Shown here piece by piece: positions 1-34,357 of a stretch of 39,841 nt of DNA. Source of the stretch: Bacteroidales bacterium (GTDB taxonomy: Bacteria > Bacteroidota > Bacteroidia > Bacteroidales > UBA3663); assembly GCA_030526445.1 (NCBI GenBank), contig JAUNCV010000001.1, positions 1-39,841 of the forward strand, given 5' to 3'. Both the position numbers and the translations under genes were made by a program. Each line of letters opens with the position of its first letter. The first letter of the stretch is position 1. Below the pieces are notes generated by a model. That model made no database searches and was not told the origin of the DNA. It worked only from the letters and a program-made list of their open reading frames with translations.

Positions 1-900
1 GGTGTTGTCGTCCTCATAGTTTGAGTGCTGCACGGCAAAGATGCTCTCGCAACCGTTTTCGTTCTCCTCCATGAAGATGTCGCCAAAGTCGGCCTCATAG
101 CCATAAAGACCAGTAGACATAACATAGCCGGTGAGCTCGATAACCTTCTGCATATCCTGCTTGTTGACATGGGCATAGCCGGTGTTCTGCTCGTAGCCAT
201 CGCCATAGCCACGGGTCAGATAGCACTTGGCAAGCATGGCAGCAGCTGCAGCTTTGTTGGCTCGGGTGATATCTTTCTTATAAGAGGTAGGAAGCACCTC
301 ATAAGCAGCCTGGAAATCGTCGATGACCTTCTGCATCAGCTCTTCATGGCTGAGGTTGTTGCTGGTCTGCTCCTGTGCTGCATTGCGAAGCACCTCTTCG
401 TCGATATAAGGAACCTTATACCAGAGCTGAATGAGCTTGAAGTAGAAATGGCCACGAAGGAAGCGAACCTCACCCATGCGCTGCTTGGAGAGTTCGGCAC
501 CGAGTTTCTCTTCGCCCTTGTCTTGCAACGACATGATGGCACGGTTGCAACGAGAGATGGCGCAATAGAGACGATACCAGAGTTCGTCCATGTGATCGGG
601 CTGTGAAGCGGTAAGGTTTGACCATACCTCAACAGGGTGATAGTTGGTGTCGGTAGTACCCGAACCGCCCTTCATGGCGTCATCGCTTGAGAGTGAGCCA
701 TAAGGCCAGAGGTTGAATGGGTAGTTGTACCAGTCGGCTCCAAGTGATGCATAGGCTGCAGTGACCATGGCGTCTGGATCATCGAATGCCAGTTCCTCAT
801 CAACGATGCCAGAAGGCTTTACCTCGAGGAAATCGTCGCAGCTGCTCATAGTGAGAGAGGCAGCCAGGGCAAGGGTTCCAAAAATATAATGAGTTTTCAT
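1..900 (-). CDS. SusD/RagB-family nutrient-binding outer-membrane lipoprotein (first 300 codons; 3' end lies beyond the window start)
   Basis: Absent from the ORF track because it has no stop in the window. Manual reverse translation from the ATG at 900-898 gives MKTHYIFGTLALAASLTMSSCDDFLEVKPSGIVDEELAFDDPDAMVTAAYASLGADWYNYPFNLWPYGSLSSDDAMKGGSGTTDTNYHPVEVW... This has a lipoprotein signal plus Cys and a SusD-like N-terminus. I hand-checked the frame as open from 900 to about 541 and infer it stays open to base 1. It lies downstream of a SusC-like gene on the same strand. Confidence 0.85.
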   Translation of the reverse strand, partial: MKTHYIFGTLALAASLTMSSCDDFLEVKPSGIVDEELAFDDPDAMVTAAYASLGADWYNYPFNLWPYGSLSSDDAMKGGSGTTDTNYHPVEVWSNLTASQPDHMDELWYRLYCAISRCNRAIMSLQDKGEEKLGAELSKQRMGEVRFLRGHFYFKLIQLWYKVPYIDEEVLRNAAQEQTSNNLSHEELMQKVIDDFQAAYEVLPTSYKKDITRANKAAAAAMLAKCYLTRGYGDGYEQNTGYAHVNKQDMQKVIELTGYVMSTGLYGYEADFGDIFMEENENGCESIFAVQHSNYEDDNT

Positions 901-1044: not shown

Positions 1045-4000
1045 TTAGAAGCCAACCTGAAGACCTACGCTGATTGAGGTTGCAATAGGATAGGCAAAAC
1101 CAGGATTCTCAGGATCGGTGCAGGTGAGGCTCTTTGACTTGATGGTGCAGAGGTTGTTGCCGCTCACATAGAGACGTGCATTGCTCAAGTGTGCCTTCTC
1201 GAGAAGTTCCTGGTCGAAAGTGTAGCCCAACTGGAGGGTACGAAGCTTGAGGTAAGAACCATTTTCGACAAAGTAGCTTGATCGACGACCCTCGTCACCA
1301 GTGTTGTTGGTGGTAAGAGCAGGAATCTTGCTGTGGGTGTTGTCGGTGGTCCAAGCACCCAGCATGCGGTTGCCCTTATTAGAGCCTGGGTCGGTGAGGC
1401 TGAAGAAGTCGGTCTGGAACTTCTGGTTGTTGTAAACATCGACACCAGCTACACCCTGCCAGAACATCTGGAAGTCGAAGCCCTTGTAGTCGAGGTTGAC
1501 GGTGAGACCGTAAGAGAAGTCGGGCACTGGGTTGTAGATCCAGGTCTGGTCAAGGCTGTTGATAACGCCATTGCCATCGAGGTCGGCATACTTCAAACCA
1601 CCCAGACGGGCATTCTCCTGACCTGAGCAGAGAACTTCCTCCTTGCTCTGGAAGAGACCCTCGGCTACATAACCTACCATAGAGCCATAAGGCATCTTGG
1701 CCTGTACGATGTTCTGGGTAGCGGTGTGCTCGTAAGAACCGGTGGTGGTGAGAGGCAACCAGGTTACCTTGTTGCGGAAGAAGTCGAGGTTGCCATTGAC
1801 GCTATAGCCAAGGCCGAAAGAGGTTTTGTTGCGATAGCCCAAAGTGAACTCCATACCGATGTTGCGAAGAGATGGACCATTCTGCCAAGAAGAACCGCCC
1901 TCGCCTACAGAACCCAAGTAAGCAGGATTGATGAGCATGTCTTTAACATCCTTGATATAGGCATCGACAGTGCCGAAGAGAGAGTTGTCGAAGAGGGCGA
2001 AGTCGAGACCTGCATTCCACTGCTCTGCAGTTTCCCATTTGAGGTTGTCATTGCCAGTGCTCTGTACGCGATAACCGCTCTCGAACATACCCGACTGGGC
2101 ACCGAGGAAGTCATAGGCGGTCGATTCCTGACGGCCTGTACCGTAATCGGCAATATATATAGTGTAACGTGCTGCATTGTCGATGGCCTGATTACCGGTC
2201 TGACCCCATGAGGCGCGAAGCTTCAGGTCGGTAAGCCAGTCGGCCTTGATGTGCTTTGAAAGACGGTAGCCGAGTGAGGCGGCTGGGAAGGTACCGTAAC
2301 GATTGTTCTTACCAAAGCGACTCGAACCGTCGCGACGGATGGTGAACGAAGCGAGGAGCTGATCGTTCCAGTTGTAGTCGGCCTTACCAAAGAATGAAAC
2401 GAGGGTGTAACCTACATTAGCGCCATAGAGATGTTGAGTGCCAGTGGCGGCATTAGGCCACATATAGAGTTTGTTCTCGATAGCAAAGCCTTCGGCAGAG
2501 CCATTGATGTTGATGTAGTTTTGCTTGTAGAGCTCGAAACCACCCAAAACGCTGAGGGTATGATTTTCGGGCAGTGGCACAAGATAGTTGGCGGTGTTCG
2601 ACCAGTTCCACTTCATGTCGTTGGTCTGGTCAACACGGGTGCTGGCGGTCTCCTCCTTAACGATGTCGGAAACGAAGGTGTAGGTCATCGAGTGGATGAA
2701 GTTGGCATTGTAGTCGATACCGAAGTTTGAACGGAGATCGAGACCCTTGACAGGCTTGATGTTGATATAGCCGTTGCCAAAGATGCGCCACATGGTGAGA
2801 CGGTTATCACGGTTGTAGTAGAGCTCGCGCATTGGGTTCTGACGGTCGCTCATGCCACCTACAGGGCCACCATAGGTCTTGCCATCGTCTTCGAACACAG
2901 GTACGGTTGGAGACATCTTGAGAGCGTTCTCGAGTGGAGCGCAATCAACCTGGTCGCTATAGGTGAGGGTGAGGTTCTCGCCTGCAGTGACATACTTATT
3001 GATATTATAAGTAGAGTTGAGACGAACAGCGATGTTCTCGAAGTCGGTATATTTGAGCACACCATCGGCCTTCTTGTAACCGATGCTGAGCATCTGAGAG
3101 CCCTTCTCTGAACCATGGCTCAGGCTGAGGTCATAGTTCTGGGTCATGCCCACACGACTGATCTGGTCGAGCCAGTCGGTATCGCTCAGACGCATGGTCT
3201 GCTTGGCGTTGATATACTGGCCATTGCCATAGAGGCCGGCCACGGTATAGTTCTTATAAGAAGAGGTAGCAGGATCCCATGCAGTGATGCCGAAGCCATT
3301 GGCTGCATTAAGATTCAGGCCATAGTTAGAGGCATAAACCACAGGATCGATGCCATCGTTGAGGGCAGCCTGAGCCATGGTGGTGGCATACTGCTCAGTG
3401 TTGCAGAGCTCCATCTTCGACTGGCCGTTGTAGAAAGAGGCAGTAGCAGAAGCCGAGAAGTCGATCTTGATTTTCTGATCCTTCTTGCCCTGCTTGGTGG
3501 TGATGATGATGACACCATTGGCAGCACGGCTACCATAAATAGAGGCAGAGGCAGCATCCTTGAGCACCTGCATGCTCTCGATATCGTTGGCATTGAGTGT
3601 GTTCAGACCATTGGTGGTAGGCACACCATCGATAACATAAAGAGGATCCTGATTAGAGTTGAAAGAACCGATGCCACGAATGCGGATGGTAGCGGTACCA
3701 GAAGGAGAACCATTGGTGGTGACAGTCATACCTGCAACCTTACCTTGAAGAGCGCGCATAGGGTCGGTGCTGCTCGAGGTCTTCATCTCCTTGGTCGATA
3801 CTACAGCTACCGAACCGGTGAGGTCGGCCTTGCGCTGGGTGGTGTAACCGGTTACGACCATCTCTTCGAGCATCTCGGCATTCTCGCTGAGAAGCACCTC
3901 CATCTTGGCCTGGGCAGCCAGGGTCTGGGTGGTGTAACCAATGTAGCTGATTTGTAACTGGGCACCTTTCTGAACATTGAGTTCGAAGTTGCCATCGATG

Positions 4001-4164
4001 TCTGTGATGGTACCGTTCTGAGTACCTACTTCTAGAATGCTGGCTCCGGTGATGGGTTCACCAAAGCCTTTGTCGAGTACCGTTCCCTGCACACGCAAAG
4101 TCTGGGCCAAAGCCAGCACTGTGGTGCAAAGAATCATGGTAGCGATCAGAAGCAATCGTTTCAT
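1045..4164 (-). CDS. SusC-family TonB-dependent outer-membrane transporter (1039 aa)
   Basis: Signal peptide, then a carboxypeptidase-regulatory-like domain (VQGTVLDKGFGEPITGASILEVGTQNGTITDIDGNFEL). TonB-box/plug region (EEMVVTGYTTQRKADLTGSV, IRIRGIGSFNSNQDPLYVIDGVP, ASASIYGSRAANGVIIITTKQG). C-terminal barrel ends in ...VGLQVGF. No N-terminal STN extension. Confidence 0.95.
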   Translation of the reverse strand: MKRLLLIATMILCTTVLALAQTLRVQGTVLDKGFGEPITGASILEVGTQNGTITDIDGNFELNVQKGAQLQISYIGYTTQTLAAQAKMEVLLSENAEMLEEMVVTGYTTQRKADLTGSVAVVSTKEMKTSSSTDPMRALQGKVAGMTVTTNGSPSGTATIRIRGIGSFNSNQDPLYVIDGVPTTNGLNTLNANDIESMQVLKDAASASIYGSRAANGVIIITTKQGKKDQKIKIDFSASATASFYNGQSKMELCNTEQYATTMAQAALNDGIDPVVYASNYGLNLNAANGFGITAWDPATSSYKNYTVAGLYGNGQYINAKQTMRLSDTDWLDQISRVGMTQNYDLSLSHGSEKGSQMLSIGYKKADGVLKYTDFENIAVRLNSTYNINKYVTAGENLTLTYSDQVDCAPLENALKMSPTVPVFEDDGKTYGGPVGGMSDRQNPMRELYYNRDNRLTMWRIFGNGYINIKPVKGLDLRSNFGIDYNANFIHSMTYTFVSDIVKEETASTRVDQTNDMKWNWSNTANYLVPLPENHTLSVLGGFELYKQNYININGSAEGFAIENKLYMWPNAATGTQHLYGANVGYTLVSFFGKADYNWNDQLLASFTIRRDGSSRFGKNNRYGTFPAASLGYRLSKHIKADWLTDLKLRASWGQTGNQAIDNAARYTIYIADYGTGRQESTAYDFLGAQSGMFESGYRVQSTGNDNLKWETAEQWNAGLDFALFDNSLFGTVDAYIKDVKDMLINPAYLGSVGEGGSSWQNGPSLRNIGMEFTLGYRNKTSFGLGYSVNGNLDFFRNKVTWLPLTTTGSYEHTATQNIVQAKMPYGSMVGYVAEGLFQSKEEVLCSGQENARLGGLKYADLDGNGVINSLDQTWIYNPVPDFSYGLTVNLDYKGFDFQMFWQGVAGVDVYNNQKFQTDFFSLTDPGSNKGNRMLGAWTTDNTHSKIPALTTNNTGDEGRRSSYFVENGSYLKLRTLQLGYTFDQELLEKAHLSNARLYVSGNNLCTIKSKSLTCTDPENPGFAYPIATSISVGLQVGF

Positions 4165-4239
4165 GTTGGGTGGTTGTTAATGTGTTAATATCACTGAGTT
4201 ATTGTTAGCGTCAATTTCAGAAAACGAATTTTGACGGCA

Positions 4240-4247
4240 CAAAAGTA
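4240..4247 (-). promoter_or_regulatory. Bacteroidota -7 promoter box (TActTTTG) for the susC at 4164
   Basis: Matches TAnnTTTG on the minus strand, 76 nt upstream of the ATG. Confidence 0.6.
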
Positions 4248-4285
4248 GGTTTTTGCCCTCGAAAAAATGTGTTAGGGACAAAAAA

Positions 4286-4316
4286 ATATGTTGCAAACGG
4301 AATATTTGCAACATAT
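4286..4316 (-). terminator. AT-rich perfect hairpin (12-bp arms ATATGTTGCAAA / TTTGCAACATAT, 7-nt loop) followed by a U-tract. Likely terminator of the PBP-AraC gene, possibly also an operator.
   Basis: Perfect inverted repeat. On the minus strand it is followed by TTTTTTTG. Lies 41 nt after the stop at 4357 and 39 nt upstream of the -7 box. Confidence 0.55.
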
Positions 4317-4356
4317 CTTGTATCGGATAAAACATTATTGCTAAGGTAACAATAAT

Positions 4357-5967
4357 TCAGTCAGACATACTCTTATATTCTTCAAAACACTTTTCGAAAT
4401 AGGCCACAGAGGAATATCCGACCCGCGAGGCCACCTCGCTTGATTCCAGGCCCTGTTTCAGCAGTTTCTCGGCCTCACTGAAACGCTTGTCGCGTATGAT
4501 ATCGAAAGGTGTGATACCTATTTTCTGCTTCACTTTTCGGTAGAGATGCGACCGGCTCATATCGAGCAGCACACTTAACTGCTCAACACCGAAATCGGCA
4601 TGCTGGTAGTTTTCATCGACCAGTTGATACACTTTTTTAATGAAAGGATCGATTTCAGGAACAGGCTGGACTTTCTTCGGCTGTGCTGGAGAAGACTCCT
4701 GGGGCGAAGCCGACTCTTCCTTTGGAGGCCTTATAGAGGGAAACTCTGGATCGGAAGTCTCGTTCTTGGCCGCATCAAGCAATTGGCGATAGGCCTGCAT
4801 GAGGTGGAAGGTGGACTGCTGTCGCTCACGATAGTTTTTGCGCATGCGCATCATGGTCACGCCAAAGAAGATGACAAAGGCCACCGAAACCACCAGCAGC
4901 ATTCGCTCCACATTGATGCGCCTGAGCAGAGAGAGCTCACGGTCCTGAAGCAGATGCACACGCTTCACCTCGCTGACAGTGGCCATCGAGAGATTGTTGG
5001 CCAACCCGGCTTTGCGGGCATCAATCACGTAGGTGGGCAGAATCTGGTAGTGTTCATAGGGTTCTCCGTTCATGATGGCTACGGCTGTCTTGATAATGAT
5101 ATCTCCTCCTGTTGGATAAAGAATAGAAGCATCGAGAAGCCCCTGTTCGACCCAGGCAATGCCCTGATTGGGACCATAAACCGCATCGGCTCCGATAAAC
5201 AGTGGGCGATCTTCGGGCACAGCCATGCCTTGAGCCTGCCGTGCCTGCATGATCTTGTTATACATGAGGTGTGCTCCCATGGCCATATAGTCATTGTGGC
5301 CAAAGACCGCCTTGAGGTTGGGATAGAGACGCATGGCCTCCTCCATGCGCACCTGGGCCGAATCGCGTTCCCAGTAGCCACAAACCGAGGCCACAACCTG
5401 GATGGATGGACATTGCTTCAGGCCATCGAAGAAACCCTGATGACGACCCTCGACAGGTGAAGAGCCATCGCGTCCCCTGATTTCGAGCACCTCTCCCCCG
5501 TCGGGCAACAAGCTGATGAGCACCTGGGCCGCCTGATAGCCTACGGCATAGTTGTCGCCACCAATGAAGGCATCTTGCAGGTTGCCCACAGCCCTTCGTT
5601 CGGCCACTATGACAGGAATCTGCTTCTCTTTGGCTTTCTTGATGAGCCTGGCTCCATTGACAGAGTCGGTGGGAGCAATGACCAAAAGGTCGATGCCGGC
5701 ATTGAGCAGGCTATCTACATCATGATCTTGTTTCTGTGGATTTTCTTGTGCATTGCAGAAGTCGAAGGTGATGTCGTGGTGAAAGATGGCCTCTCGACGC
5801 ATCTCGTCATTCATCTTGTCGCGCCATTGATCACCTGCACATTGTGATACACCTATGTGTATAGATGGGTTATCCTGCGAGGTGAAGTCCTCGCAGGAAT
5901 TAAGGGTGATGCCACTGCTAAGAGCGGCCATAACAAATAAACAGTCCCAAAGGGAAGAAATTTTCAT
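4357..5967 (-). CDS. Membrane-tethered one-component regulator: periplasmic sugar-binding (PBP type I) domain, one TM helix, P/E/S-rich linker, AraC-type HTH (536 aa)
   Basis: The N-terminal signal/anchor and PBP domain are paralogous to the sensor of the 910-aa HTCS in this window (IHIGVSQCAGDQWRDKMNDEMRRE, IPVIVAERR, AFIGGDNYAVGYQ, YPTGGDIIIKTAVAIMNGEPYE). TM helix MLLVVSVAFVIFFGVTMM. C-terminal AraC HTH (LSVLLDMSRSHLYRKVKQKIGITPFDIIRDKRFSEAEKLL...VGYSSVAYFEKCF). No H-box, HATPase or receiver motifs are visible. Confidence 0.8.
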   Translation of the reverse strand: MKISSLWDCLFVMAALSSGITLNSCEDFTSQDNPSIHIGVSQCAGDQWRDKMNDEMRREAIFHHDITFDFCNAQENPQKQDHDVDSLLNAGIDLLVIAPTDSVNGARLIKKAKEKQIPVIVAERRAVGNLQDAFIGGDNYAVGYQAAQVLISLLPDGGEVLEIRGRDGSSPVEGRHQGFFDGLKQCPSIQVVASVCGYWERDSAQVRMEEAMRLYPNLKAVFGHNDYMAMGAHLMYNKIMQARQAQGMAVPEDRPLFIGADAVYGPNQGIAWVEQGLLDASILYPTGGDIIIKTAVAIMNGEPYEHYQILPTYVIDARKAGLANNLSMATVSEVKRVHLLQDRELSLLRRINVERMLLVVSVAFVIFFGVTMMRMRKNYRERQQSTFHLMQAYRQLLDAAKNETSDPEFPSIRPPKEESASPQESSPAQPKKVQPVPEIDPFIKKVYQLVDENYQHADFGVEQLSVLLDMSRSHLYRKVKQKIGITPFDIIRDKRFSEAEKLLKQGLESSEVASRVGYSSVAYFEKCFEEYKSMSD

Positions 5968-6000
5968 AACCGGAAAATTGGTAATTCTGATTTGTGTGAT

Positions 6001-8244
6001 TTATTCGGCAGTCAGTTCGATGACTCGACTGTGCTGGCTCTCCTGAGAGAAGGCATCGAGGCCCACCTTCATGAGATAATCGCCCGAGAAGACCTTTCCA
6101 TTCTCGCTCAGGGTTGAGGCCTCACCCGGCATGAGGTTGATTTCGGCAACCTTATAGCGCTTGGTGGCATCGAGGCCCTGTAGGCGCACCTTCGAGAGAG
6201 GCTCCTTGTAGCGAGGGTGGATATCGTAGGCAAAGAGAACGGCCTTCTGCTGGCTGGCCGAAACATAGTTGACAGCCATGTGATTGCTCTCATAGGGCGA
6301 AACCAAGCGATATTGCTGGCCATCGAGGATAACACCTTGCAGACGATGCCAGTTGGCAACAGCTCCCTGCAGATATTTGATCTCATCGTCATTGAGGTGA
6401 CGCAAGCCGATATCGAAGCCGAGTTTGCACATAGAGGCCACATCGGTGCGGAACTTGACAGAGGCACTGCGATTCCAGTCGGTGACATGGGCACACATGG
6501 CCTTGGCTGGGAAGAACTGGCTGAAGCCCCACTGGATGTAGAGACGCTCGATAGGATCGGTATCGTCAGAACACCAGAATTCTGTGAAATACTTAAGAGC
6601 CTCATAGTCGCAACGGCCACCACCACCCGAACAGAGCATCATAGGGGTGTTGGGGAAATTCTCCTTGACGCGACTCATGACATTATATACGCCTCGCACA
6701 TGATCGACATAGAGATTCGACTGCTTGTCTTTGCAATAGGGGCTATAGATATTGGTGATAGGCGAATTGCAGTCCCACTTGAAATAGCATACGCGCGAAT
6801 CGCCATTGACACTGCCATCGGTGAGAATCTGGGCCACCACCTGATAGACATACTCCTGAACGGCAGGATTGGCCAGATCGAGCACCAGCTGGTTGCGGTA
6901 GTAATAGGTTTCGCGATTGGTCTGGCGAATCACCCAGTCGGGATGCTTCTCGAAGAGATCGGACATGGGATTGACCATTTCGGGCTCGATCCAGATGCCA
7001 AACTTCACACCAGCGGCATCGGCAGCATCGCACAAGGCAGGCACACCTCCAGGAAGCTTGGCATGATTGACCTCCCAGTCGCCCAGACCGGCAGTATCGC
7101 CATTGCGGGCATGGTCGCCATTGCCAAACCAGCCATCATCGAGCAAGAACATATCGACACCCAGGGTCTTGGCCTCTTTCATCAGGTTGGCCAGTTTCTC
7201 CTGATCGAAGTCGAAATAGGTGTTCTCCCAGTTGTTGAGCAACGACATGCGAGGCTTTTCGCCATCGCGCACCTGATACTTGCGGGCCCAGTCATGCAGA
7301 TGGCGCGAACCCAGAGAGGTGCCTTGGTTGCTGATAGTGAAGATAAACTCGGGGGTGGTGAACACCTCGCCAGCCTTGAGCTGGTAGGCTGAGGTATTGG
7401 GGTTGAGGCCTGGCAGGATGCGAAGGGCGCCTACATTGTCAACCTCAAGGGTGTAGCGCCAGTTGCCGGTCCAGCCAATGGTGCCCATTAGCACCTCGCC
7501 CTGCTGTTCGGCTGCAGGCTGACCCAAGCCCACTTCGAAGAAGGGGTGGCTGTGCATGGCAGCACGCGAGCCAAGTTTGGTATCGACCACCTTTTTGCCA
7601 AACTGCAGTTGCTGTGACGACATCTGTGCCTCACGGGCCCAATCGCTCGAAAACTCGGTGAGCCAGTACTGAGGGCGACGGAAATAGAGCATGGCAGAGT
7701 TGACGCTTCGCAACTGAATGCAGCCATTGGGGGCGATGTTACGGGCCTTCTTGTCGGCTTTCTCATGATGCACAATCTCGCTCCAGGTCTTGATGACATC
7801 CTGTTCGGGATAGGCCACATAATGCAGGGTGACCTGAACGGGATAGCGATTGTCGGCCAGGCGGATGATGGTCTCTGTGCCACCCTCAACAGTCCTTTGC
7901 TCATGGCTCTGATAATAAAGATAGGTGGTGGTGTTGCCATCGGTGTGGGTGATATCGATGGCTGGCTCGAAAAACTCTTCGGAGCCACCTGTATTATAGA
8001 CCTCCCAGCCTCGCTGGCAAACCGATCCATCGGAAGCGGCATAGACATCCCAAGGCAGGTGCTGATAGTCGCTCTCGTTAAGCAGACGCTCTCCGAGATA
8101 CACCTGATAAAGACGGTTGTTGGGGCCTACCTTGAGCACCAGGTCGGTGCTGTTGGTGCGGATGGGAATCACCTCGTTGGCCGCAAAGGCTGCAGTGGCA
8201 GAGCAAGAGAGCAGTGCCAGGGAGGAAAGCAATAGATGTTTCAT
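6001..8244 (-). CDS. GH36 alpha-galactosidase, secreted (747 aa from the MKHLLL start)
   Basis: GH36-type motifs LLDDGWFG, GLGDWEV, FGIWIEPEMV, YFKWDCN and CSGGGGR. I prefer the start at ATG 8244-8242 because it gives the signal peptide MKHLLLSSLALLSCSATAAFA. The track's upstream extension (to 8349) is hydrophobic nonsense that overlaps the susD-GH36 spacer. Confidence 0.88.
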   Translation of the reverse strand: MKHLLLSSLALLSCSATAAFAANEVIPIRTNSTDLVLKVGPNNRLYQVYLGERLLNESDYQHLPWDVYAASDGSVCQRGWEVYNTGGSEEFFEPAIDITHTDGNTTTYLYYQSHEQRTVEGGTETIIRLADNRYPVQVTLHYVAYPEQDVIKTWSEIVHHEKADKKARNIAPNGCIQLRSVNSAMLYFRRPQYWLTEFSSDWAREAQMSSQQLQFGKKVVDTKLGSRAAMHSHPFFEVGLGQPAAEQQGEVLMGTIGWTGNWRYTLEVDNVGALRILPGLNPNTSAYQLKAGEVFTTPEFIFTISNQGTSLGSRHLHDWARKYQVRDGEKPRMSLLNNWENTYFDFDQEKLANLMKEAKTLGVDMFLLDDGWFGNGDHARNGDTAGLGDWEVNHAKLPGGVPALCDAADAAGVKFGIWIEPEMVNPMSDLFEKHPDWVIRQTNRETYYYRNQLVLDLANPAVQEYVYQVVAQILTDGSVNGDSRVCYFKWDCNSPITNIYSPYCKDKQSNLYVDHVRGVYNVMSRVKENFPNTPMMLCSGGGGRCDYEALKYFTEFWCSDDTDPIERLYIQWGFSQFFPAKAMCAHVTDWNRSASVKFRTDVASMCKLGFDIGLRHLNDDEIKYLQGAVANWHRLQGVILDGQQYRLVSPYESNHMAVNYVSASQQKAVLFAYDIHPRYKEPLSKVRLQGLDATKRYKVAEINLMPGEASTLSENGKVFSGDYLMKVGLDAFSQESQHSRVIELTAE

Positions 8245-8349
8245 TGTTATAGAGTAGTTTTTGATGAAAAGACTGAGGTTAGCTGGAAAACCGATGACTA
8301 CCAGCCTGAAACTGGTAGCCATCAACAAACTTAAACACACATAACACAA

Positions 8350-10086
8350 TTACCAGCCAACATTCTGCTTATATTTTTCTCCGCTATAGTTCATCTGGTT
8401 GAGAGGAATGGGGAGATACTCGTCGCGATTGGCAGTGAACTTAGCCTGACGGAGATAATCGACAACCTCTTTCTCCTTGGCAATATAATCGTTCAGATAG
8501 TTGGCAGCAATGCCCCAGCGAACGAGGTCGAAGAAGCGGTTGCCCTCGGTGGCAAATTCGAGGCGACGCTCCCAGCGAAGAGCCTGACGGGCACTTTCCT
8601 GATTCCAGGTGTAGTTGGCATCAGTGTAGAGGGCAATGTTGTAGTTGCCAAACTGCATGCCTGCTGCATTGACCAGCTTAGAGGTGCTGTTGGCAGCACG
8701 CTGGCGAATCTGGTTGATCAGGTCGCGGGCTTCGTCGAGGTTCTCATTGAGCTCAATGTCGATCTCTGCCTTCCAGAGAAGCACATCATCGTAACGAAGG
8801 AGGTCGATGTTCTTGGCCGAGCCTGCAAAATAGGTGGTGGCAGTGAGGGTCGGGTCGTTAGGACTCACCAACTCCTTCATGCAAGAGTAGTAGCTATATA
8901 CACCCGGAACACGCGACCAAGACTTCTGATACACAAAGTTGGGCTCATACTTGAATGGACGGCCAGGGATGCCCACTGTGTGGTCGAGACGAGGATCGAC
9001 CTCAGGGTTGATGTCGTTGAAGTTGCCATCCTTGGCAGCATCGACCTCATAGAAGGTCTCGAACATAGGCAGGCCATTCTCGGTCTTGAAAGCATTGATG
9101 AGGTTGTGGCTTGGCTGGTGGAAGCCGCAAGTGGCAGGATACTCTGAAGCCATTGGGTAGTTGAGGGCATGGTCTTCATCGATTCGGCCATAAATGGTGC
9201 CATCGTTCGAACTATACTGTACGGCAAAGATCGACTCAATGCCGTTTTCGGTAGCGGTGAGGAAGTTGTTGGCAAAGTCGGCAGCCAGAGCATATTTGCC
9301 AGAGCCAATTACCTCATCGCAAAGCGAACCTGCCTTGGCAAGCATCTGCTTGTCTATGCTGGTGACCTGGTTGTTGTCATCGCCCTGCACATAGGCTGCA
9401 TAGAGCAAGGTCTTGGCCTGATATGCCTTGGCAGCCCACTTGGTGGGACGGCCAACCTCGGTCTGTGAGGCAGGGAGAATGGCTGCAGCCTCCTCGAAAT
9501 CCTGTGCAATGCGAGCCCAGAGCTGAGCATTGTTGAGGTCGTGGTTGGTAGCGGCATTTTTTTCGGTGGTGCCCATGGTCTCGTCAATGAAAGGAACATG
9601 CTTGAAGAGAATCTTGAGCACGAAATAGTAGTGGCCACGAAGGAACTTCATCTCAGCAATGCGCTGCTGGCGGGCAGGCATCTCGGCATCGGTCAGCTTG
9701 TTGAGATACTCGAGAGCGGTATTGACACGCGAGAGGTCGAGATAGAGCTGCACCCAGAGGTTGTCGGTCCACTCATTATCGACCGTATTGCTGTAGTAAA
9801 CCTCCCACTGGTGTGCCAGACCGCAGTCGCCTGTTCCGCCACCACCTTTGTAGGTGTCGCCACTACGCACACAACCCAATGACCAGAGGCTGACCAAAGG
9901 ACGATGCCAGGTGGTGTTGCCTAAAGTAGAGTAGGCTGCATTGCAAAGCTGATCAACATTGGCAGCCGTGTTGAAGTCTTCTTCGGTTACGATGCCTTGT
10001 GCCTCTTCGTCGAGGAAGTCAGAGCATGAAGACAAACTGAGGATACCAGCCAAACCGAGAGCTAAATATTTCATAGATGTTTTCAT
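8350..10086 (-). CDS. SusD/RagB-family nutrient-binding lipoprotein (578 aa)
   Basis: Lipoprotein signal MKYLALGLAGILSLSSCSDFLDEE. SusD-like TPR-containing body (RAEMKFLRGHYYFVLKILF, WERRLEFATEGNRFFDLVRWG). Lies 27 nt downstream of a SusC-like gene. Confidence 0.93.
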   Translation of the reverse strand: MKTSMKYLALGLAGILSLSSCSDFLDEEAQGIVTEEDFNTAANVDQLCNAAYSTLGNTTWHRPLVSLWSLGCVRSGDTYKGGGGTGDCGLAHQWEVYYSNTVDNEWTDNLWVQLYLDLSRVNTALEYLNKLTDAEMPARQQRIAEMKFLRGHYYFVLKILFKHVPFIDETMGTTEKNAATNHDLNNAQLWARIAQDFEEAAAILPASQTEVGRPTKWAAKAYQAKTLLYAAYVQGDDNNQVTSIDKQMLAKAGSLCDEVIGSGKYALAADFANNFLTATENGIESIFAVQYSSNDGTIYGRIDEDHALNYPMASEYPATCGFHQPSHNLINAFKTENGLPMFETFYEVDAAKDGNFNDINPEVDPRLDHTVGIPGRPFKYEPNFVYQKSWSRVPGVYSYYSCMKELVSPNDPTLTATTYFAGSAKNIDLLRYDDVLLWKAEIDIELNENLDEARDLINQIRQRAANSTSKLVNAAGMQFGNYNIALYTDANYTWNQESARQALRWERRLEFATEGNRFFDLVRWGIAANYLNDYIAKEKEVVDYLRQAKFTANRDEYLPIPLNQMNYSGEKYKQNVGW

Positions 10087-10113
10087 CTGTATATGCTATT
10101 TGAAAGTTAGTAC

Positions 10114-13100
10114 TTAGAAGGTTACATTCAGACCTACAGTGGTAACCAGTGGTCGAGGATAAGCATTGCTTGAGTTCTCAGGATCGACACCCGAGAAGTC
10201 TTTAGACTTGATGGTGAGCAAGTTGTTAGCCTGCACATAGATGTCTGCATTCGAGATCCAACTGAACTTGTCGCAGATTTTCTTCAAAGAGTAACCTACC
10301 TGGATGTTTCGAAGCTTCAGGTAAGAACCATTCTCAACAAAGTAGCTTGAGCGACGGCCCTCGTTGTTGGCATCGTTGAAGGTGAGCATCGGGATGTCAG
10401 AACCGGTGTTCTGTGGGGTCCATGCATCGAGCACTCGCTTGCCATAGTTGGTGCCGGTGTAGAGCGAAGTGAAGTCGGTGAGAGTCTTGAGGTTGTTGTA
10501 AACATCGATGCCAGCCAGACCCTGCCAGAACATAGATACTGAGAGGTCTTTCCACTTCATGCCAAGGTTGAGACCATACTCAAACTTAGGCAGACCGTCG
10601 GTGAGATAGGTGCGGTCTTTGTCGTCGATGACATGGTCGCCATTGAGATCCTTGTAACGGATACGGCCAGGGCCTGCACCGGTCTGGGTGGCATGAGCAT
10701 CGACTTCGGCCTGATTCTGGAACAGACCATCGGCTACATAGCCATAGACAGAGTTGATAGAGCGGCCCAGGATGACATCGGTGGTGCCGTTGCCAGGATA
10801 AGAGGTGAGCACACTCTTAGGAAGCTTGGTGACTTCGTTCTGGTAACGCGAGATGTTGAGGCCCGCATTCCAGCTCCAGTCTTTATTGATGTTGTGGCTG
10901 TAGTTGAGCTGCAACTCCCAGCCCCAGTTCTTCATAGAGGCACCATTGACCCACTGATTGCCACCTTCGCCAATAACAGCCAGGTAGTTAGGGCTGATGA
11001 GAATGTCTTTGGTCTCTTTGATGAAGTAGTCGAACGAACCGGTGAGATCATTATTCAGGAAGCCGAAGTCAACACCCATATTGTGCTGGGTTGAGGTCTC
11101 CCACTTGAGATCTTTGTTGCTCAACTGCTGGCGAGCAAAACCAGAAACCATAGAGCCATTGCCGGCAATATCGTAGGCAGTACCCTTGTCTGGATTTGAA
11201 GCTACCGATGAGTCGGGAGTGCCATAGATGGCCTTATAGATTGACATATATGCATAGTTGTCGATCTCTTGGTTACCATTCTGGCCCCAGCCATAACGAA
11301 GCTTCAGGTCGCTGAACAGGTTGAGGTTGCGGATGAAATCCTCTTCCGACATGCGCCAGCCGAGAGAGTAGGCAGCGAAGGTGCCCCAGCGATTATCCTT
11401 GGCAAAACGGCTTGAACCATCGCGACGAAGGGTGAACGAAACCAGATATTTGTTCATGAGCTGGTAGTCGGCCTTGCCAAAGAACGAGAGCAAGGTGTAG
11501 CTTGAGCCTTCACCCGCATTGTTAATGCTCGATGAACCGGTGCTCAGATACATATAATTGAGATTCTCGAGAGAATAGCCCTTGCGGCTTGCCGAGAACA
11601 TCTGGTTGTTGTATTTGGCCATCTCGTGACCGAGCAGCACGGTGAGGCGGTGGTTGCGACCATATTCGGCCGAGTAGTTGAGGGTGTTCTGCCACTGCCA
11701 GTTGCCCATAAACTTGAACTGCTGGTCGAGCTTGTTGGTGGCATCACCCAGGAAGCCGCTGGTAAATGACTTGGTCATGTTGCGGAAGTAGGTTCCAAAG
11801 TAATCGACACCACCAGAGGTGCGGAAGGTGAAGTCTTTCAGGAACTTAACCTCGGCAAAGGCATTGCCGAAGAGGCGAACATTGTTGGCTGCATTCTCGG
11901 CATTGTCGACCAGCTGACGAAGAGGGTTGTGCACATCGCTCATGCCATTGACTGGGCCGCCCCAGCCGCCCTTGTTGTCGTGAACGGGTGTGAGAGGGTG
12001 CGAACGAAGCACATTCCACATCACTGCCGATGCATTGCCCTCGCCACCCACGGTCTGCTGATCCTTGTGGGTGTAGCTGACAGAGAGGTTTTCGCCTACA
12101 CGCAAGTGATTGTCGAAGAAGTTGTACTCAGAGTTGGCACGAAGAGAGGCACGCTTCATAAAGGTCTCTTTCATGATGCCCTCGTTGTCATAGTAGCCCA
12201 TTGAGAACATCGAGCGACCATGCTCATTGCCATTGGAGAAGGTGAGGTTGTAGCTCTGAATGAGTGGTACGCGTGAAACCTCATCATACCAGTCGGTATC
12301 GCCAGCTGTTTCGTTGTAAGGCGAGAAAGCGCTCTGGTTGACACCTACCGAAGAAAGGGTGGGGTTGTTATAGTCGTTGTTCCAGTTGAAGGTATAGAGG
12401 CTCTGGGCTGAGTTGGGGTCACTGCCATCGTTGACCCAGGCACGCCATACGGCTCGGCCCAGACCATTGGCATCGAGCACCTCCATGCGATTGTTGTAAA
12501 ACTGGGTAGAGAGCGAAGCATTGAAGGCAATCTCTTTGTAGCCCTCTTTGGCTCGTTTGGTGGTGATGATGACAACACCGTTGGCTGCACGGCTACCATA
12601 GATAGAGGCCGAAGAGGCATCCTTGAGCACCTGGATAGACTCGATATCGCGCGAGTTGAGCTCGTTGAGACCACGCTTGGTGGGCATGCCATCGATCACA
12701 TAAAGAGGATCGTTGTTACCCAGGGTGCCAATGCCTCGGATGCGTACGGTGGCTGCACCCTCGGGCGAACCATCGGTGGTGATGTTAACACCTGGCACAC
12801 GGCCCTGAAGGGCCTCCATGGGGTTGCTGGTTGGAATATCGCTGGTCTCTTTGAGCTTGATGACACTCACGGCACCGGTCAAATCGGCCTTGCGTGCCAC
12901 TTGATAACCTACTACTACTGCCTCTTCGAGCTGTTTGCTATCTTCGAGCAGTGTAACATTGAAAACATTTTTGCCATCGGTCAGCATCTCCTGCTGAACA
13001 TATCCTATATAAGAGAAAATGAGTGAGCTGCCGTCGGCAACAGTAAGAGTGAAGTTGCCATCCATATCGGTGACAGTACCATTGCTTGTACCCTTTTCGA

Positions 13101-13263
13101 TGACATTGACGCCAATGAGGCCATCGCCAAATTCGTCAATTACTTTGCCGGTCAGCTGCTTCTGAGCCCAAGTGGCTCCTACGAAACATGATGAGACGAG
13201 GAGGGTGGCTGCGAGTCGCTTGGCTCCCGTCTGTCTTTTCGGGTTAGTCTGGTTTCTTTTCAT
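10114..13263 (-). CDS. SusC-family TonB-dependent outer-membrane transporter (1049 aa)
   Basis: Carboxypeptidase-regulatory-like domain (LTGKVIDEFGDGLIGVNVIEKGTSNGTVTDMDGNFTL). Plug motifs (VVVGYQVARKADLTGAVSV, VRIRGIGTLGNNDPLYVIDGMP, SSASIYGSRAANGVVIITTKRA). Terminal ...VGLNVTF. Paralogous to the gene at 1045..4164. Confidence 0.95.
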   Translation of the reverse strand: MKRNQTNPKRQTGAKRLAATLLVSSCFVGATWAQKQLTGKVIDEFGDGLIGVNVIEKGTSNGTVTDMDGNFTLTVADGSSLIFSYIGYVQQEMLTDGKNVFNVTLLEDSKQLEEAVVVGYQVARKADLTGAVSVIKLKETSDIPTSNPMEALQGRVPGVNITTDGSPEGAATVRIRGIGTLGNNDPLYVIDGMPTKRGLNELNSRDIESIQVLKDASSASIYGSRAANGVVIITTKRAKEGYKEIAFNASLSTQFYNNRMEVLDANGLGRAVWRAWVNDGSDPNSAQSLYTFNWNNDYNNPTLSSVGVNQSAFSPYNETAGDTDWYDEVSRVPLIQSYNLTFSNGNEHGRSMFSMGYYDNEGIMKETFMKRASLRANSEYNFFDNHLRVGENLSVSYTHKDQQTVGGEGNASAVMWNVLRSHPLTPVHDNKGGWGGPVNGMSDVHNPLRQLVDNAENAANNVRLFGNAFAEVKFLKDFTFRTSGGVDYFGTYFRNMTKSFTSGFLGDATNKLDQQFKFMGNWQWQNTLNYSAEYGRNHRLTVLLGHEMAKYNNQMFSASRKGYSLENLNYMYLSTGSSSINNAGEGSSYTLLSFFGKADYQLMNKYLVSFTLRRDGSSRFAKDNRWGTFAAYSLGWRMSEEDFIRNLNLFSDLKLRYGWGQNGNQEIDNYAYMSIYKAIYGTPDSSVASNPDKGTAYDIAGNGSMVSGFARQQLSNKDLKWETSTQHNMGVDFGFLNNDLTGSFDYFIKETKDILISPNYLAVIGEGGNQWVNGASMKNWGWELQLNYSHNINKDWSWNAGLNISRYQNEVTKLPKSVLTSYPGNGTTDVILGRSINSVYGYVADGLFQNQAEVDAHATQTGAGPGRIRYKDLNGDHVIDDKDRTYLTDGLPKFEYGLNLGMKWKDLSVSMFWQGLAGIDVYNNLKTLTDFTSLYTGTNYGKRVLDAWTPQNTGSDIPMLTFNDANNEGRRSSYFVENGSYLKLRNIQVGYSLKKICDKFSWISNADIYVQANNLLTIKSKDFSGVDPENSSNAYPRPLVTTVGLNVTF

Positions 13264-13376: not shown

Positions 13377-13413
13377 AAGATTTGTTGCATTCCGGAAAAT
13401 TGCAACAAATCTT
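13377..13413 (-). terminator. AT-rich perfect hairpin (13-bp arms AAGATTTGTTGCA / TGCAACAAATCTT; the 11-nt loop contains the palindrome TTCCGGAA) followed by a U-rich tract
   Basis: Perfect inverted repeat. On the minus strand it is followed by TTTGTTTCTGAAACATTTTTTT. Lies 47 nt upstream of the -7 box of the susC at 13263. Confidence 0.5.
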
Positions 13414-13504
13414 CTATGTAGTGAACGAAAAGTATAAATGTTACATGCAATGTTACATATGTATCGGGGCTAAAAACTGCTGAAACTAAAAGAAATAGAG
13501 GTTC

Positions 13505-14923
13505 CTAAGAGAGTAAATCCTGCATAGTTATAACATTTTGCACCACAGAGCTATGGATATTTTTCTGCAATCCCTGGTTGGTGATCAATGTAACTCGTAT
13601 CGAACTTTTCGTGCCTGTATATTGAATAAAACTCTCTACACGATGCTCCAGTTTCTCTCGTTCCGTCTTGGTCAAAGCATACTCTCCTGCACAAAACTTC
13701 ATTTCGCAAAGATTGATGCAATGGTCGGCACGATCGATGATTAAGTCAATCTGTGCTCCCTTGTCGGCGGTTGCTGGTGTGCGCCATCCATACACAGCCG
13801 TCTGCACTCCTCCTATGCGAAGAGCCTCCTTGATTTTGCCGATATGATTCAGACAAAGAATTTCAAATGCGAAACCGCTCCAGGCGTGATAGAGTGGCGT
13901 GTTGATACTATGCGACCAAAACTGCTCATCTTGATATTGGCATTTGTCCTGAATATGATAACAAAAGTGCAGGAACGGATCGATAAGCTGATAGCTTAGC
14001 ATACGTTTCTTTCCATCGAATGGCTGATATGGACGAATGAAACGACAGTTCTCCAGCTCTTTGAGCATGCTGGAAAAACGTACATTGTTGTGCAGTTTTG
14101 TATGTTCAAGCAATTCGCTACGGGTAAGTCCCTTACTCTTCGACGAAAGTGCTTCGACAATGCGGACATAGTCTTCGCTATGCTTGAAGAGCGAACGGAA
14201 AAGGTTGTCTTTTTCAGCCCTCAATTCTCCAGTAGCTGAGAAAATGAGGCGGTCGATGTTCTGCGCAACACTCTCCTCCTTATTTAATAAAGAAAGATAA
14301 TAGGGCACACCTCCGAAGACCATATAGTAATCGGTCACTTCACGGTCGGTATAGCCAAAAGCATATTTATCAAAATACTCTCGGCACTCGGAGAGTGAAA
14401 ATGGCTCGATGAGCATCTGGTGGGTTACTCGATTGTGCAAACCTCCATGATTGTTGATGAGATTGTCGAGCATCCACGAGGCAGCACTACCGCACACGAT
14501 CAACTTAATGTCACGGCGAGCCGAAGCCCAGCTGTTCCAGAAATGCTCAAGGGCACTTACAAAATCTGATTTGGCAGTGGCAAGCCATGGCATCTCATCG
14601 AAGAACAGTATCTTCGTCTCTTCGTTCAAGCCCTCGAGATAGCGTTCCAACTGGTCGAATGCCTCCAGCCAGCTCCTGCTGCGCTCCGCTCCTGCAAACC
14701 TTTTTCTTAGGCTAAGAAAGAAGTTGGTGAGCTGCTCTTCCTGTCCCACATTCTCCATGCCCGTTATCTGAAAACAACAGCGGTCGGCAAGGCTCTTCCG
14801 CACAAGAAAAGTCTTTCCGACACGACGACGTCCATAGACAACAACAAACTCCGAGCGATTGGATGCGATATATTCCTTGAGAGCTCTCTGCTCTTTCTGT
14901 CGGCCAATGAGATATTCTTCCAT
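13505..14923 (-). CDS. AAA+ (Arch_ATPase/DUF234-type) ATP-binding protein with a C-terminal PD-(D/E)xK-like nuclease motif (472 aa from MEEYLIG)
   Basis: Walker A VVYGRRRVGKTFLV and Walker B ILFFDEMPW. C-terminal region GFAFEILCLNH...GAQIDLIIDRADHCINLCEMKF has a D...ExK pattern. The start at 14923 lies 25 nt downstream of a TAccTTTG box. The track's longer start (14992) would lie upstream of that box. Confidence 0.8.
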   Translation of the reverse strand: MEEYLIGRQKEQRALKEYIASNRSEFVVVYGRRRVGKTFLVRKSLADRCCFQITGMENVGQEEQLTNFFLSLRKRFAGAERSRSWLEAFDQLERYLEGLNEETKILFFDEMPWLATAKSDFVSALEHFWNSWASARRDIKLIVCGSAASWMLDNLINNHGGLHNRVTHQMLIEPFSLSECREYFDKYAFGYTDREVTDYYMVFGGVPYYLSLLNKEESVAQNIDRLIFSATGELRAEKDNLFRSLFKHSEDYVRIVEALSSKSKGLTRSELLEHTKLHNNVRFSSMLKELENCRFIRPYQPFDGKKRMLSYQLIDPFLHFCYHIQDKCQYQDEQFWSHSINTPLYHAWSGFAFEILCLNHIGKIKEALRIGGVQTAVYGWRTPATADKGAQIDLIIDRADHCINLCEMKFCAGEYALTKTEREKLEHRVESFIQYTGTKSSIRVTLITNQGLQKNIHSSVVQNVITMQDLLS

Positions 14924-14947
14924 AATAATCAGTATTTTATGACGATG

Positions 14948-14955
14948 CAAAGGTA
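14948..14955 (-). promoter_or_regulatory. Bacteroidota -7 promoter box (TAccTTTG) for the ATPase gene
   Basis: Matches TAnnTTTG on the minus strand, 25 nt upstream of ATG 14923. Confidence 0.5.
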
Positions 14956-14996
14956 ATGAAAAGGTTGGCATGAACAAAACTTTCTGGACCAAAAAG

Positions 14997-15030
14997 TGCT
15001 GAAACGCATTTAAAAAAAATGATTTCAGCA
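14997..15030 (-). terminator. Second hairpin (8-bp arms TGCTGAAA / TTTCAGCA, A/T-rich 18-nt loop) followed on the minus strand by CTTTTTGG
   Basis: Inverted repeat built from the same GCTGAAA unit, in tandem with the hairpin at 15043..15089. Confidence 0.4.
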
Positions 15031-15042
15031 GAAAATAGACCT

Positions 15043-15089
15043 AAAAGTTGCTGAAACGATATAAAAAGATACCCATTTCAGCAACTTTT
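15043..15089 (-). terminator. Hairpin (14-bp perfect arms AAAAGTTGCTGAAA / TTTCAGCAACTTTT) downstream of the 910-aa HTCS gene
   Basis: Perfect inverted repeat 31 nt after the stop at 15120. It is built from the GCTGAAA repeat unit. Confidence 0.5.
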
Positions 15090-15119
15090 GAGGCTAACTA
15101 GCGGTTTCAGACAGAGTTC

Positions 15120-32074: not shown

Positions 32075-32122
32075 GGTTTTGCGTTAGTATATGATATTTA
32101 GTATTTGATTGTTCACAATGGT

Positions 32123-34357
<2,235 letters not shown>

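Follow-up and report, generated by a model that had tools for sequence, protein, structure and literature searches.

A 39,841-nt stretch of the genome of a Bacteroidales bacterium (contig JAUNCV010000001.1, assembly GCA_030526445.1; hereafter the window) encodes, at 4357..5967 on the reverse strand, a 536-aa protein that from its sequence has the make-up of a one-component regulator that spans the membrane: a periplasmic sensor, a single transmembrane (TM) helix and a cytoplasmic DNA-binding domain (DBD), without phosphorelay domains. This form, in which a periplasmic binding protein (PBP) sensor is joined through one TM helix to an AraC-type DBD, is common and conserved in gut Bacteroidales, and uncharacterised experimentally. 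We consider it probable that the protein is an autonomous, sugar-gated membrane activator of the lineage of BT1754, a hybrid two-component system (HTCS) of Bacteroides thetaiotaomicron, that its phosphorelay was lost by internal deletion, and that it drives the SusC/SusD genes downstream of it.

Glycan use in gut Bacteroidota is governed mainly by HTCSs, and the mechanism by which a membrane-tethered sensor acts on an AraC DBD is still under study. The current HTCS model invokes a latch between the receiver (REC) domain and the DBD that is released by phosphorylation. The short family provides a natural experiment on this model, in which sensor and DBD are kept, kinase and receiver are missing, and the latch residues have been erased in one clade.

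Domain architecture of the regulator

The regulator gene is an intact open reading frame with an ATG start; all parts of the protein and of the operons described below lie on the same strand. Pfam analysis placed Peripla_BP_4 at aa 44-302 (E = 5.4e-41) and, at the C-terminus, HTH_AraC at aa 452-487 and HTH_18 at aa 468-534 (E = 4.9e-14), corresponding to the C-terminal bipartite helix-turn-helix (HTH) of about 100 aa of the AraC/XylS family. No HisKA, HATPase_c or Response_reg domain was found in the regulator by Pfam, even at E ≤ 0.1. Hydropathy identified one internal TM helix at approximately aa 355-375 (4843-4905), and a hydrophobic N-terminus (aa 1-25, 5893..5967) ending in the lipobox-like sequence LNSC. 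Cys25 was kept in at least 90% of the ortholog sequences, within the motif [LVF]-x-[SGA]-C (alignment A1). A lipobox-like Cys motif, LFLAAC, is also found at the N-terminus of a full-length, 910-aa HTCS encoded in the window. The periplasmic domain of both short and full PBP sensors may be held at its two ends, by a lipid at the N-terminus and a TM helix at the C-terminus, and not by two TM helices.

An AlphaFold2 model, produced with 70 homologs as input, had a mean pLDDT (predicted local distance difference test score) of 88.6. Residues 36-316 (5020..5862) adopted a PBP fold, in agreement with the Pfam match. Residues 317-404 (4756..5019) formed a single unbroken helix of 88 residues that passes through the membrane, and comprises a periplasmic stalk, the TM segment and a cytoplasmic connector. 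Residues 405-435 were disordered (pLDDT < 50), with no fold anywhere within aa 405-440, and aa 441-535 formed a seven-helix AraC DBD with pLDDT of about 95. This domain (aa 441-536, 4360..4647) contains two HTH motifs, and its closest match in the PDB was the structure of HTCS BT4124 (12aw).

The connector (aa 376-404, 4756-4842) was defined by ortholog conservation. In the orthologs, the post-TM helix is strongly conserved and basic, MRRHxLERRRTALxLVRANRxLRDAA, with R376, R382, L389, R394, L396 and D398 invariant. The following tether (aa 405-440, 4648..4755) is rich in P, E, S and Q, varies in both length and sequence among orthologs, and has no Pfam match. The initial annotation described a P/E/S-rich linker of roughly 60 residues behind the TM helix; this description holds for approximately aa 405-435, but not for aa 376-404, where the TM segment runs on as a conserved basic helix.

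Remnants of the phosphorelay were sought in several ways. The ortholog alignment and a comparison of connectors revealed no H-box in the post-TM helix, and the protein contains no S/CHIP motif of the receiver latch loop. A tblastn search of positions 3900-6300 of the window with the kinase and REC region of the 910-aa HTCS found no remnant in any frame (best E = 0.31), and neither flank of the gene leaves DNA to spare. A frameshifted HTCS was therefore ruled out. A cryptic HisKA or REC domain in aa 375-440, a possibility that had been named beforehand as a check, was likewise ruled out by Pfam and by the helix-then-disorder course of the model. BLAST aligned the linker segment NETSDPEFPSIRPP with NVSHDFRTP, but this candidate H-box vestige was rejected as the segment is variable in orthologs. 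Pfam, the structural model and tblastn are thus in agreement with the architecture first proposed, of PBP sensor, one TM helix and AraC DBD without kinase or receiver.

Conservation and descent of the short forms

A homolog search covering 5.8 billion proteins identified 36 orthologs at 46-57% identity, of equal length and domain composition and on independent contigs, and many more distant PBP and HTH_18 proteins of 500-590 aa. In the ortholog alignment the residues of the sugar pocket were invariant, the DBD was conserved, and every domain contained invariant residues. With dozens of conserved orthologs on independent contigs, the regulator is neither a fragment nor an assembly artefact. In NCBI, the short forms are labelled only "substrate-binding domain-containing protein".

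An exhaustive HMMER search was run against cluster representatives at 50% identity, and the best 150 matches were assigned to domain classes by a crude phmmer classification. Full HTCSs accounted for 85 of these 150 nearest clusters, 47 (31%) had only the TM helix and DBD after the sensor (median 522 aa), and 8 had HisKA, REC and DBD without the ATPase. Pfam confirmed the DBD-only type in clade-B proteins (see below) and in three Neolewinella species, and the ATPase-less type as PBP, TM, HisKA, REC and HTH in 720-800 aa. Two further proteins, P0132 (590 aa) and P0154 (521 aa), were scored in the same crude classification as TM, REC and DBD without HisKA or HATPase; they may represent a further reduced architecture, or be false positives.

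Bootstrapped neighbour-joining trees were built separately for the sensor and the DBD. Gut clade A, which holds the window protein, was monophyletic (100% bootstrap). Clade B and the ATPase-less forms were together monophyletic (91%), with ATPase-less proteins interleaved among short ones in the sensor tree. Full-length Bacteroidales HTCSs were placed between clades A and B, with just 57% support. The Neolewinella short forms nested within the full-length HTCSs of Lewinellaceae, with 100% support in the sensor tree and 74% in the DBD tree. The connector of each short lineage was homologous to that of its own full-length or ATPase-less relatives. Thus, LFRSLRSKQ...EKN.EILE.ERQL in Neolewinella corresponds to LWKSLRSKQ...KKNQEILEHERQL...FFTNISHE in Lewinellaceae, and the clade-B core YLYHRGK..RRERV to YLYFRQK..AAERTKMEREQLDFYTQVSHELRTPL in ATPase-less proteins. 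The deletions start at approximately the H-box and end just ahead of the DBD, and the lineage-specific connector homology indicates that they were independent.

These comparisons suggest that the short form arose at least three times by deletion from BT1754-type HTCSs, the relation between clades A and B being weakly resolved (57%). A single origin of all short forms was ruled out by both trees and by connector homology. Derivation from a PBP-type HTCS by domain loss, as first suggested, accords with the same evidence. A motif NRxLRD that appeared common to clades A and B in the A3 consensus was discarded, since that consensus is dominated by clade A. In the Neolewinella short forms the connector is joined to the DBD by only about 10 residues, which suggests a tighter mechanical coupling than in the gut clades.

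The ATPase-less PBP proteins (P0043, P0045, P0056, P0062, P0073 and P0081) retain the H-box His and REC. Examples also occur in the propeller class (P0345 and P0352, about 1150 aa), with HisKA including the H-box His, REC and AraC domains. ATPase-less forms gave weak DUF6377 matches spanning the TM helix and connector; in the gene table of locus L089, the accession number of this family, PF19904, bears the label SusR_C. In L089, the context of P0056, an ATPase-less PBP form lies off fructan polysaccharide utilization loci (PULs), between a GH9 gene and a divergent SusR-like regulator with TPR_SusR and SusR_C domains that accompanies a starch-type GH97/SusC/SusD locus.

The window itself contains a full-length paralog, the 910-aa PBP-type HTCS at 15120..17852 (reverse strand), in which Pfam found Peripla_BP_4, HisKA, HATPase_c, Response_reg and HTH_18. 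BLASTP aligned aa 37-434 of the regulator with aa 34-419 of this paralog at 32% identity (401 columns, E = 5e-72) and, in the DBD, aa 440-531 with aa 805-897 at 41% identity (E = 4e-20). The sequence blocks on which the initial annotation based the paralogy of the two sensors fall within this alignment.

The two paralogs differ at the latch. In HTCSs, the DBD is held off through contacts of the C/SHIP loop of REC with an Asp in DBD helix α6 and a Lys in α8, D1344 and K1383 in BT4124, and work from the Stock laboratory has found that breaking the latch leads to constitutive DNA binding (PMC11253607, PMC13292587). The 910-aa HTCS has a complete latch (CHIP724, D804 and K843). In the regulator an AraC DBD is present and the Lys position is K478, but the Asp is replaced by Ile439. 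Among full PBP-HTCSs (n = 101), the α6 position was Asp in 73 and Glu in 19, giving 92% D/E. It was hydrophobic (I/L/M/V) in 36/36 short forms of clade A, and D/E in about 65% of the other short forms (n = 107). The α8 position was Lys in 97% of the full proteins; in clade A it was Lys in 44% and Arg in 56%, and Lys in 88% of the other short forms. Going by these residues, clade A has dismantled the DBD half of the REC-DBD latch, a loss that would be consistent with long-standing function without REC. It also suggests that the latch residues are dispensable for DNA binding.

Candidate operators, target genes and ligand

Downstream of the regulator lies a gene for a SusC-like TonB-dependent transporter (1045..4164), probably the first gene of the regulated operon. 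A putative operator, TGTTGCAA-N9-TTGCAACA, was identified in the spacer at 4289..4313. As Bacteroidetes promoters differ from those of sigma-70, the -7 motif TAnnTTTG was searched for directly, and a Bacteroidetes-type -7 box for susC was found by pattern match at 4240..4247 (TACTTTTG). The operator is centred about 54 nt upstream of this box, and some 60 bp upstream of the susC promoter, a position typical for an activator. A third conserved element, the GCAACAT-like AACACATTTTTT (4262..4273), follows the second half-site at a distance of about 21 bp. The 21-bp spacing is that of HTCS direct repeats (PMC3878776). A related site, TGTTGCAA-N9-ATGCAACA, occurs at 13383..13407 upstream of a second susC (10114..13263).

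The pattern TGTTGCA-N11-TGCRACA occurs at only these two sites in the window (4289-4313 and 13383-13407), compared to 0.07 expected. Among 86 loci, it was found only in regulator-to-susC spacers of Bacteroidales loci. Alignment of nine promoters (A2) showed invariant blocks TGTTGCA...TGC.ACA...AC.TT...CTTTG, in which AC.TT corresponds to the third element and CTTTG to the -7 box. Two subtypes could be distinguished: S-type sites, beside short regulators (wATGTTGCAA-N9-TTGCrACATww), and H-type sites, beside full HTCSs (TTTGTTGCAA...cTGCAACAAA), with 11 bp extra before the -7 box. In the window, the site ahead of susC 1045..4164 is S-type and that ahead of susC 10114..13263 is H-type; in loci L006 and L007, the H-type site stands before a fructan PUL that is under the control of a full PBP-HTCS. 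The TGTTGCA(AC) core was also present upstream of clade-B PULs. Apart from the latch, the DBDs of clade A diverge from those of full, ATPase-less and clade-B proteins at several columns that are conserved elsewhere (L496F, Y514Q/P, P521T/A and the C-terminal Pro), differences which would fit the distinct flank of the S-type operator. In Neolewinella the candidate operator is different, consisting of GTCGAC/GTTGAC repeats upstream of a gene of the major facilitator superfamily (MFS) (L008 11720-12069, L009 5609-5944 and L013 11687-12049).

The regulator thus adjoins susC and susD and is accompanied by a conserved upstream DNA motif, as one-component PUL regulators are. The conserved candidate operator also favours the susC beginning at 4164, the target named in the initial annotation. 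The adjacent SusD-like gene (1..900), recognised by its translation and a SusD-like_3 match, is cut by the window edge. With the fructan-PUL pair in L004/L006/L007, the window SusC shared 80% and the truncated SusD 74% identity. Directly after the regulator stop codon, an AT-rich hairpin (4327-4356, reverse strand; ATTATTG-N9-CAATAAT followed by GTTTTAT) may act as a weak terminator between the regulator transcript and the susC promoter.

A fructan PUL was found at every short-regulator context retrieved (L001/L002, L004-L007, L084, L087, L088 and L008/L009/L013). The regulator lies directly upstream of SusC, SusD, a levan-binding surface glycan-binding protein (SGBP) and GH32 with P0023 (L001/L002) and in L005, L006 and L007 (= P0031, L004). 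It comes after the SGBP and GH32 genes with P0003, among the nearest homologs at 57% identity, and stands at the head of a GH32/SusC/SusD/levan-SGBP cluster with clade-B P0105 and P0042. In Neolewinella (L008/L009/L013), the order is regulator, MFS sugar transporter, PfkB kinase, SusC and SusD, with GH32 in L009. None of the short-regulator homolog contexts retrieved was a GH36 locus. Full and short paralogs are neighbours in L006, L007 and the window; around the short regulators of L001 and L005, a stretch of 10 kb holds no full HTCS.

Upstream of the regulator, Pfam and the junction sequence define an operon (6001..13263) of SusC (10114..13263), SusD (8350..10086) and a GH36 α-galactosidase (6001..8349). 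The GH36 stop codon and the regulator start codon are separated by 33 bp. This gap contains no operator or -7 box, so the regulator is probably co-transcribed with the upstream operon. The H-type operator of the GH36 operon suggests that a fructose-type HTCS drives an α-galactosidase PUL, that is, a dedicated raffinose-family locus. Raffinose-family sugars are α-galactosyl-sucrose. In B. thetaiotaomicron, use of raffinose requires both α-galactosidase and fructose sensing by BT1754 (PMC11501099), and because of this coupling a combined GH36 and fructan-type locus is biologically sensible.

The best match of the sensor in the PDB was 2X7X, the fructose sensor of BT1754 (phmmer E = 2.6e-59), and Foldseek superposed the two with a TM-score of 0.93 and rmsd (root-mean-square deviation) of 2.4 Å. 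Pocket positions were mapped from what we take to be the sugar contacts of E. coli ribose-binding protein; of these, the N-terminal N13, F15 and F16, and Q235, had no reliable alignment. D/E123, R124, R175, W199, N225 and D261 were retained in BT1754, in the window HTCS and in both gut clades, A and B. Fold and monosaccharide pocket of the sensor, on this presumed contact list, are therefore those of the BT1754 type. The pocket residues were invariant or nearly so over about 70 short forms of 28-57% identity, the regulator carrying E123. Conservation across proteins so divergent suggests that ligand binding has been retained under selection. The homology to BT1754 and the fructan-PUL context point to fructose, and the sensed molecule is more likely this sugar than an α-galactoside. 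The initial annotation had suggested galactose, melibiose or raffinose and a link to GH36. This guess was not upheld, given the closest structure, the position of orthologs at fructan PULs, and the separate H-type operator of the upstream operon that contains GH36.

Two other regions bear on HTCSs in the window. An ORF for an AAA-ATPase (13505..14992; ATPase_2/AAA_22, with a weak DUF4143 match) separates the 910-aa HTCS from its presumed operator and susC. The gene is flanked by direct repeats at 13455-13495 and 14974-15014, about 1519 bp apart (...CTAAAAACTGCTGAAAC...), and there is an inverted repeat nearby at 15036-15096. It looks like an insertion that has interrupted the HTCS-susC unit; in L006 and L007 this unit is unbroken. 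A second reduced HTCS is encoded at 34500..37742 (reverse strand), a 1080-aa protein with a Reg_prop β-propeller, a TM helix at about aa 754-775, some 45 residues, Response_reg and HTH_18. It contains no HisKA or HATPase_c even at E ≤ 1, and no S/CHIP motif; its post-TM segment, EAKLQFFMQTAA, resembles the lead-in to an H-box minus its His. The protein is a singleton, and as its nearest homologs (63-72% identity, 1342-1388 aa) all retain the kinase, it would represent a recent lineage-specific deletion, possibly decay. Beside it, 29516..34342 (reverse strand) carries a GH9 gene with CelD_N and a GH10-esterase fusion, probably a xylan or β-glucan cluster whose regulator has lost its kinase.

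Mechanism, alternatives and known systems

As the regulator has no phospho-acceptor domain, signalling would proceed without phosphotransfer, and the initial proposal of phosphorylation-independent signalling follows from the architecture. A dimer would be expected from descent from a histidine kinase dimer. A periplasmic monosaccharide, most likely fructose from fructans or from raffinose-type oligosaccharides, would close the PBP domain and alter how the paired stalk, TM and connector helices pack. Both tethered DBDs would then occupy the palindrome TGTTGCAA-N9-TTGCAACA and activate the downstream SusC/SusD operon of fructan type. Since the regulator is probably co-transcribed with the H-operator operon, the full HTCS and the short regulator may act in series.

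Several observations sit uneasily with a sugar-gated activator of a fructan-type operon. A disordered tether of about 35 residues, as modelled, would not be able to carry an allosteric signal; control would therefore have to operate through proximity or avidity of the DBDs, sequestration by the basic connector, oligomerisation or stability. The model from the Stock laboratory predicts constitutive activity for dimer-tethered AraC DBDs that lack the REC latch. Within clade A, the window protein diverges most (≤57% identity), and its β1 loop reads AGDQW, compared with SGGDW in orthologs and SDDSW in BT1754, so that the ligand could differ. The window ends after susD, and a downstream GH32 is deduced only from the SusC/SusD pair; in L006/L007, moreover, the matching pair follows the full HTCS and not the short regulator. 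Finally, the distinction between S- and H-type operators is based on just 6 and 3 sites, respectively.

The main rival, unlikely in our view, is a ligand-independent relay. The regulator would be a constitutive DNA binder whose output follows its abundance, passing the HTCS signal to a second PUL in a cascade or feed-forward arrangement, and the PBP domain would only dimerise. This would explain the 33-bp gap without operator or -7 box after GH36, the disordered tether, and DBDs that have no REC latch, which in the Stock-laboratory work bind DNA constitutively when unlatched or dimer-tethered. However, without ligand binding the near-invariance of the pocket would be difficult to account for, conservation of the post-TM connector is strong, and the short regulators of L001 and L005 are not downstream of another PUL or HTCS. 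The last observation also bears on a role as HTCS modulator, in which the protein forms heterodimers with the 910-aa HTCS, or competes with it for TGTTGCA operators, so as to tune, antagonise or broaden its response. Full and short paralogs are indeed neighbours in the window and two other loci, both operator subtypes have an identical core half-site, and cross-regulation between HTCS paralogs is documented (PMC13292587). The modulator is nevertheless quite unlikely, as the sensors are just 32% identical, the operator flanks are consistently different, and short forms without an adjacent HTCS occur in L001, L005, L087, L088 and Neolewinella.

It seems improbable that the ligand of the regulator is galactose, melibiose or raffinose and that in function it is part of the GH36 locus. 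The regulator does adjoin GH36, its β1 loop is unlike that of the fructan-linked orthologs, and raffinose use in B. thetaiotaomicron couples α-galactosidase with fructose sensing; but the closest structure is a fructose sensor, the homolog contexts retrieved are all of fructan type and none has GH36, and the S-type operator lies downstream of the regulator, the GH36 operon having an H-type site of its own. Regulated proteolysis is highly improbable. CadC is reportedly activated by proteolytic cleavage, and the long, disordered tether of variable sequence would allow ligand-controlled cleavage, there or in the TM helix, to free a soluble AraC DBD. A long cleavable tether is not general to the class, however, given the join of about 10 residues in Neolewinella. 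No protease gene is conserved nearby in the ortholog loci compared, and a freed monomeric DBD would no longer have the avidity of a dimer, which suits a palindrome. Lastly, the regulator might be a decaying pseudogene or assembly artefact of a former full-length HTCS, in favour of which the singleton kinase-less propeller HTCS indicates that recent deletions do occur in this genome. The conservation data effectively refute this reading: the 36 orthologs share length and architecture, the frame is intact, each domain has invariant residues, synteny and operator are conserved, and no kinase or REC remnant was found.

A broader proposal, and a tentative one, extends the sugar-gated activator to the lineage as a whole. 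The phosphorelay of BT1754-type proteins may be dispensable, at least three lineages (clade A, clade B and Neolewinella) having independently cut out, at one and the same place, the region from the H-box to just ahead of the DBD while the dimeric TM connector was kept, and graded intermediates survive in the ATPase-less forms and in the kinase-less protein of the window; the HTCS and short paralog in the window might then form a two-tier H/S circuit that couples α-galactosidase with fructan-type uptake for raffinose-family oligosaccharides. If true, the transmembrane signal of an HTCS could gate AraC DBDs directly, and phosphorylation and the REC-DBD latch would be an added layer of control, repeatedly stripped from monosaccharide sensors by evolution.

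Conservation at fructan PULs makes the short regulators relevant to inulin and fructo-oligosaccharide prebiotics. Published HTCS screens demand all four cytoplasmic domains, so these proteins are invisible to current annotation of PUL regulators, and they may explain fructan PULs without an obvious regulator in Prevotellaceae and other Bacteroidales. As compact, ATP-independent modules leading from sugar to promoter, with a candidate operator, they could also serve Bacteroides engineering.

Comparison with known systems places the regulator closest to BT1754, with which it shares a homologous PBP sensor and AraC DBD and the same topology; a link to fructan PULs, and a monosaccharide in place of an oligosaccharide as ligand, would probably be common to both. 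It departs from HTCSs in four features, HisKA, HATPase_c, REC and the latch, while the sensor and TM arrangement are those of an HTCS, and a disordered tether joins its TM connector to the DBD. It should not be called an HTCS, yet is clearly a derivative of the BT1754 lineage. The ATPase-less PBP-HTCSs have the same sensor family and a homologous post-TM connector, but retain the H-box His and receiver, neither of which is found in the regulator.

The initial annotation called the signalling ToxR-like. As a loose analogy this stands, since in ToxR, TcpP and CadC, too, one polypeptide couples an extracytoplasmic sensor to DNA binding without phosphotransfer, and CadC has a disordered cytoplasmic linker. 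The comparison fails on topology and DBD class: these proteins have an N-terminal cytoplasmic winged-helix DBD of OmpR type, a TM helix and a C-terminal periplasmic domain; the regulator has the reverse order and an AraC DBD, and no homology to them. The further statement that no characterised example of this architecture controls a PUL overlooked SusR and the genetically validated BguR, although it is correct that neither has the PBP-TM-AraC composition. Our literature searches found no description of PBP-TM-AraC regulators; a census of transmembrane transcription regulators counts non-hybrid members in Bacteroides without describing them (PMC10269533).

SusR, the maltose-responsive regulator of starch utilisation, is likewise an inner-membrane one-component PUL activator of Bacteroides, with periplasmic sensor, TM helix and C-terminal DBD and no phosphorelay. 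Its domains are unrelated, with a TPR_SusR sensor and SusR_C DBD in place of PBP and AraC. None of the family domains of SusR (TPR_SusR/SusR_C) or BguR (Reg_prop/Y_Y_Y with GerE) was found in the Pfam scan of the regulator. BguR regulates laminarin PULs of marine Flavobacteriia, where its deletion abolishes PUL induction, and its authors considered only SusR to be comparable (bioRxiv 10.64898/2026.01.10.698779). Like the regulator, BguR couples an HTCS-type sensor to its DBD by way of one TM helix and a helical linker, lacks a phosphorelay, lies immediately upstream of susC/susD and is accompanied by a conserved motif upstream. It differs in its tandem β-propeller/Y_Y_Y sensor, GerE/LuxR HTH, length of 940 aa and association with β-glucan PULs, as compared to the PBP sensor and ancestral HTCS AraC DBD of the regulator, whose descent from full HTCSs is traceable through intermediates. 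BguR is therefore a precedent for activation of a PUL by an HTCS-type sensor that is joined to a DBD with no phosphorelay, and the functional home of the regulator lies with SusR and BguR among the membrane-spanning one-component PUL regulators.

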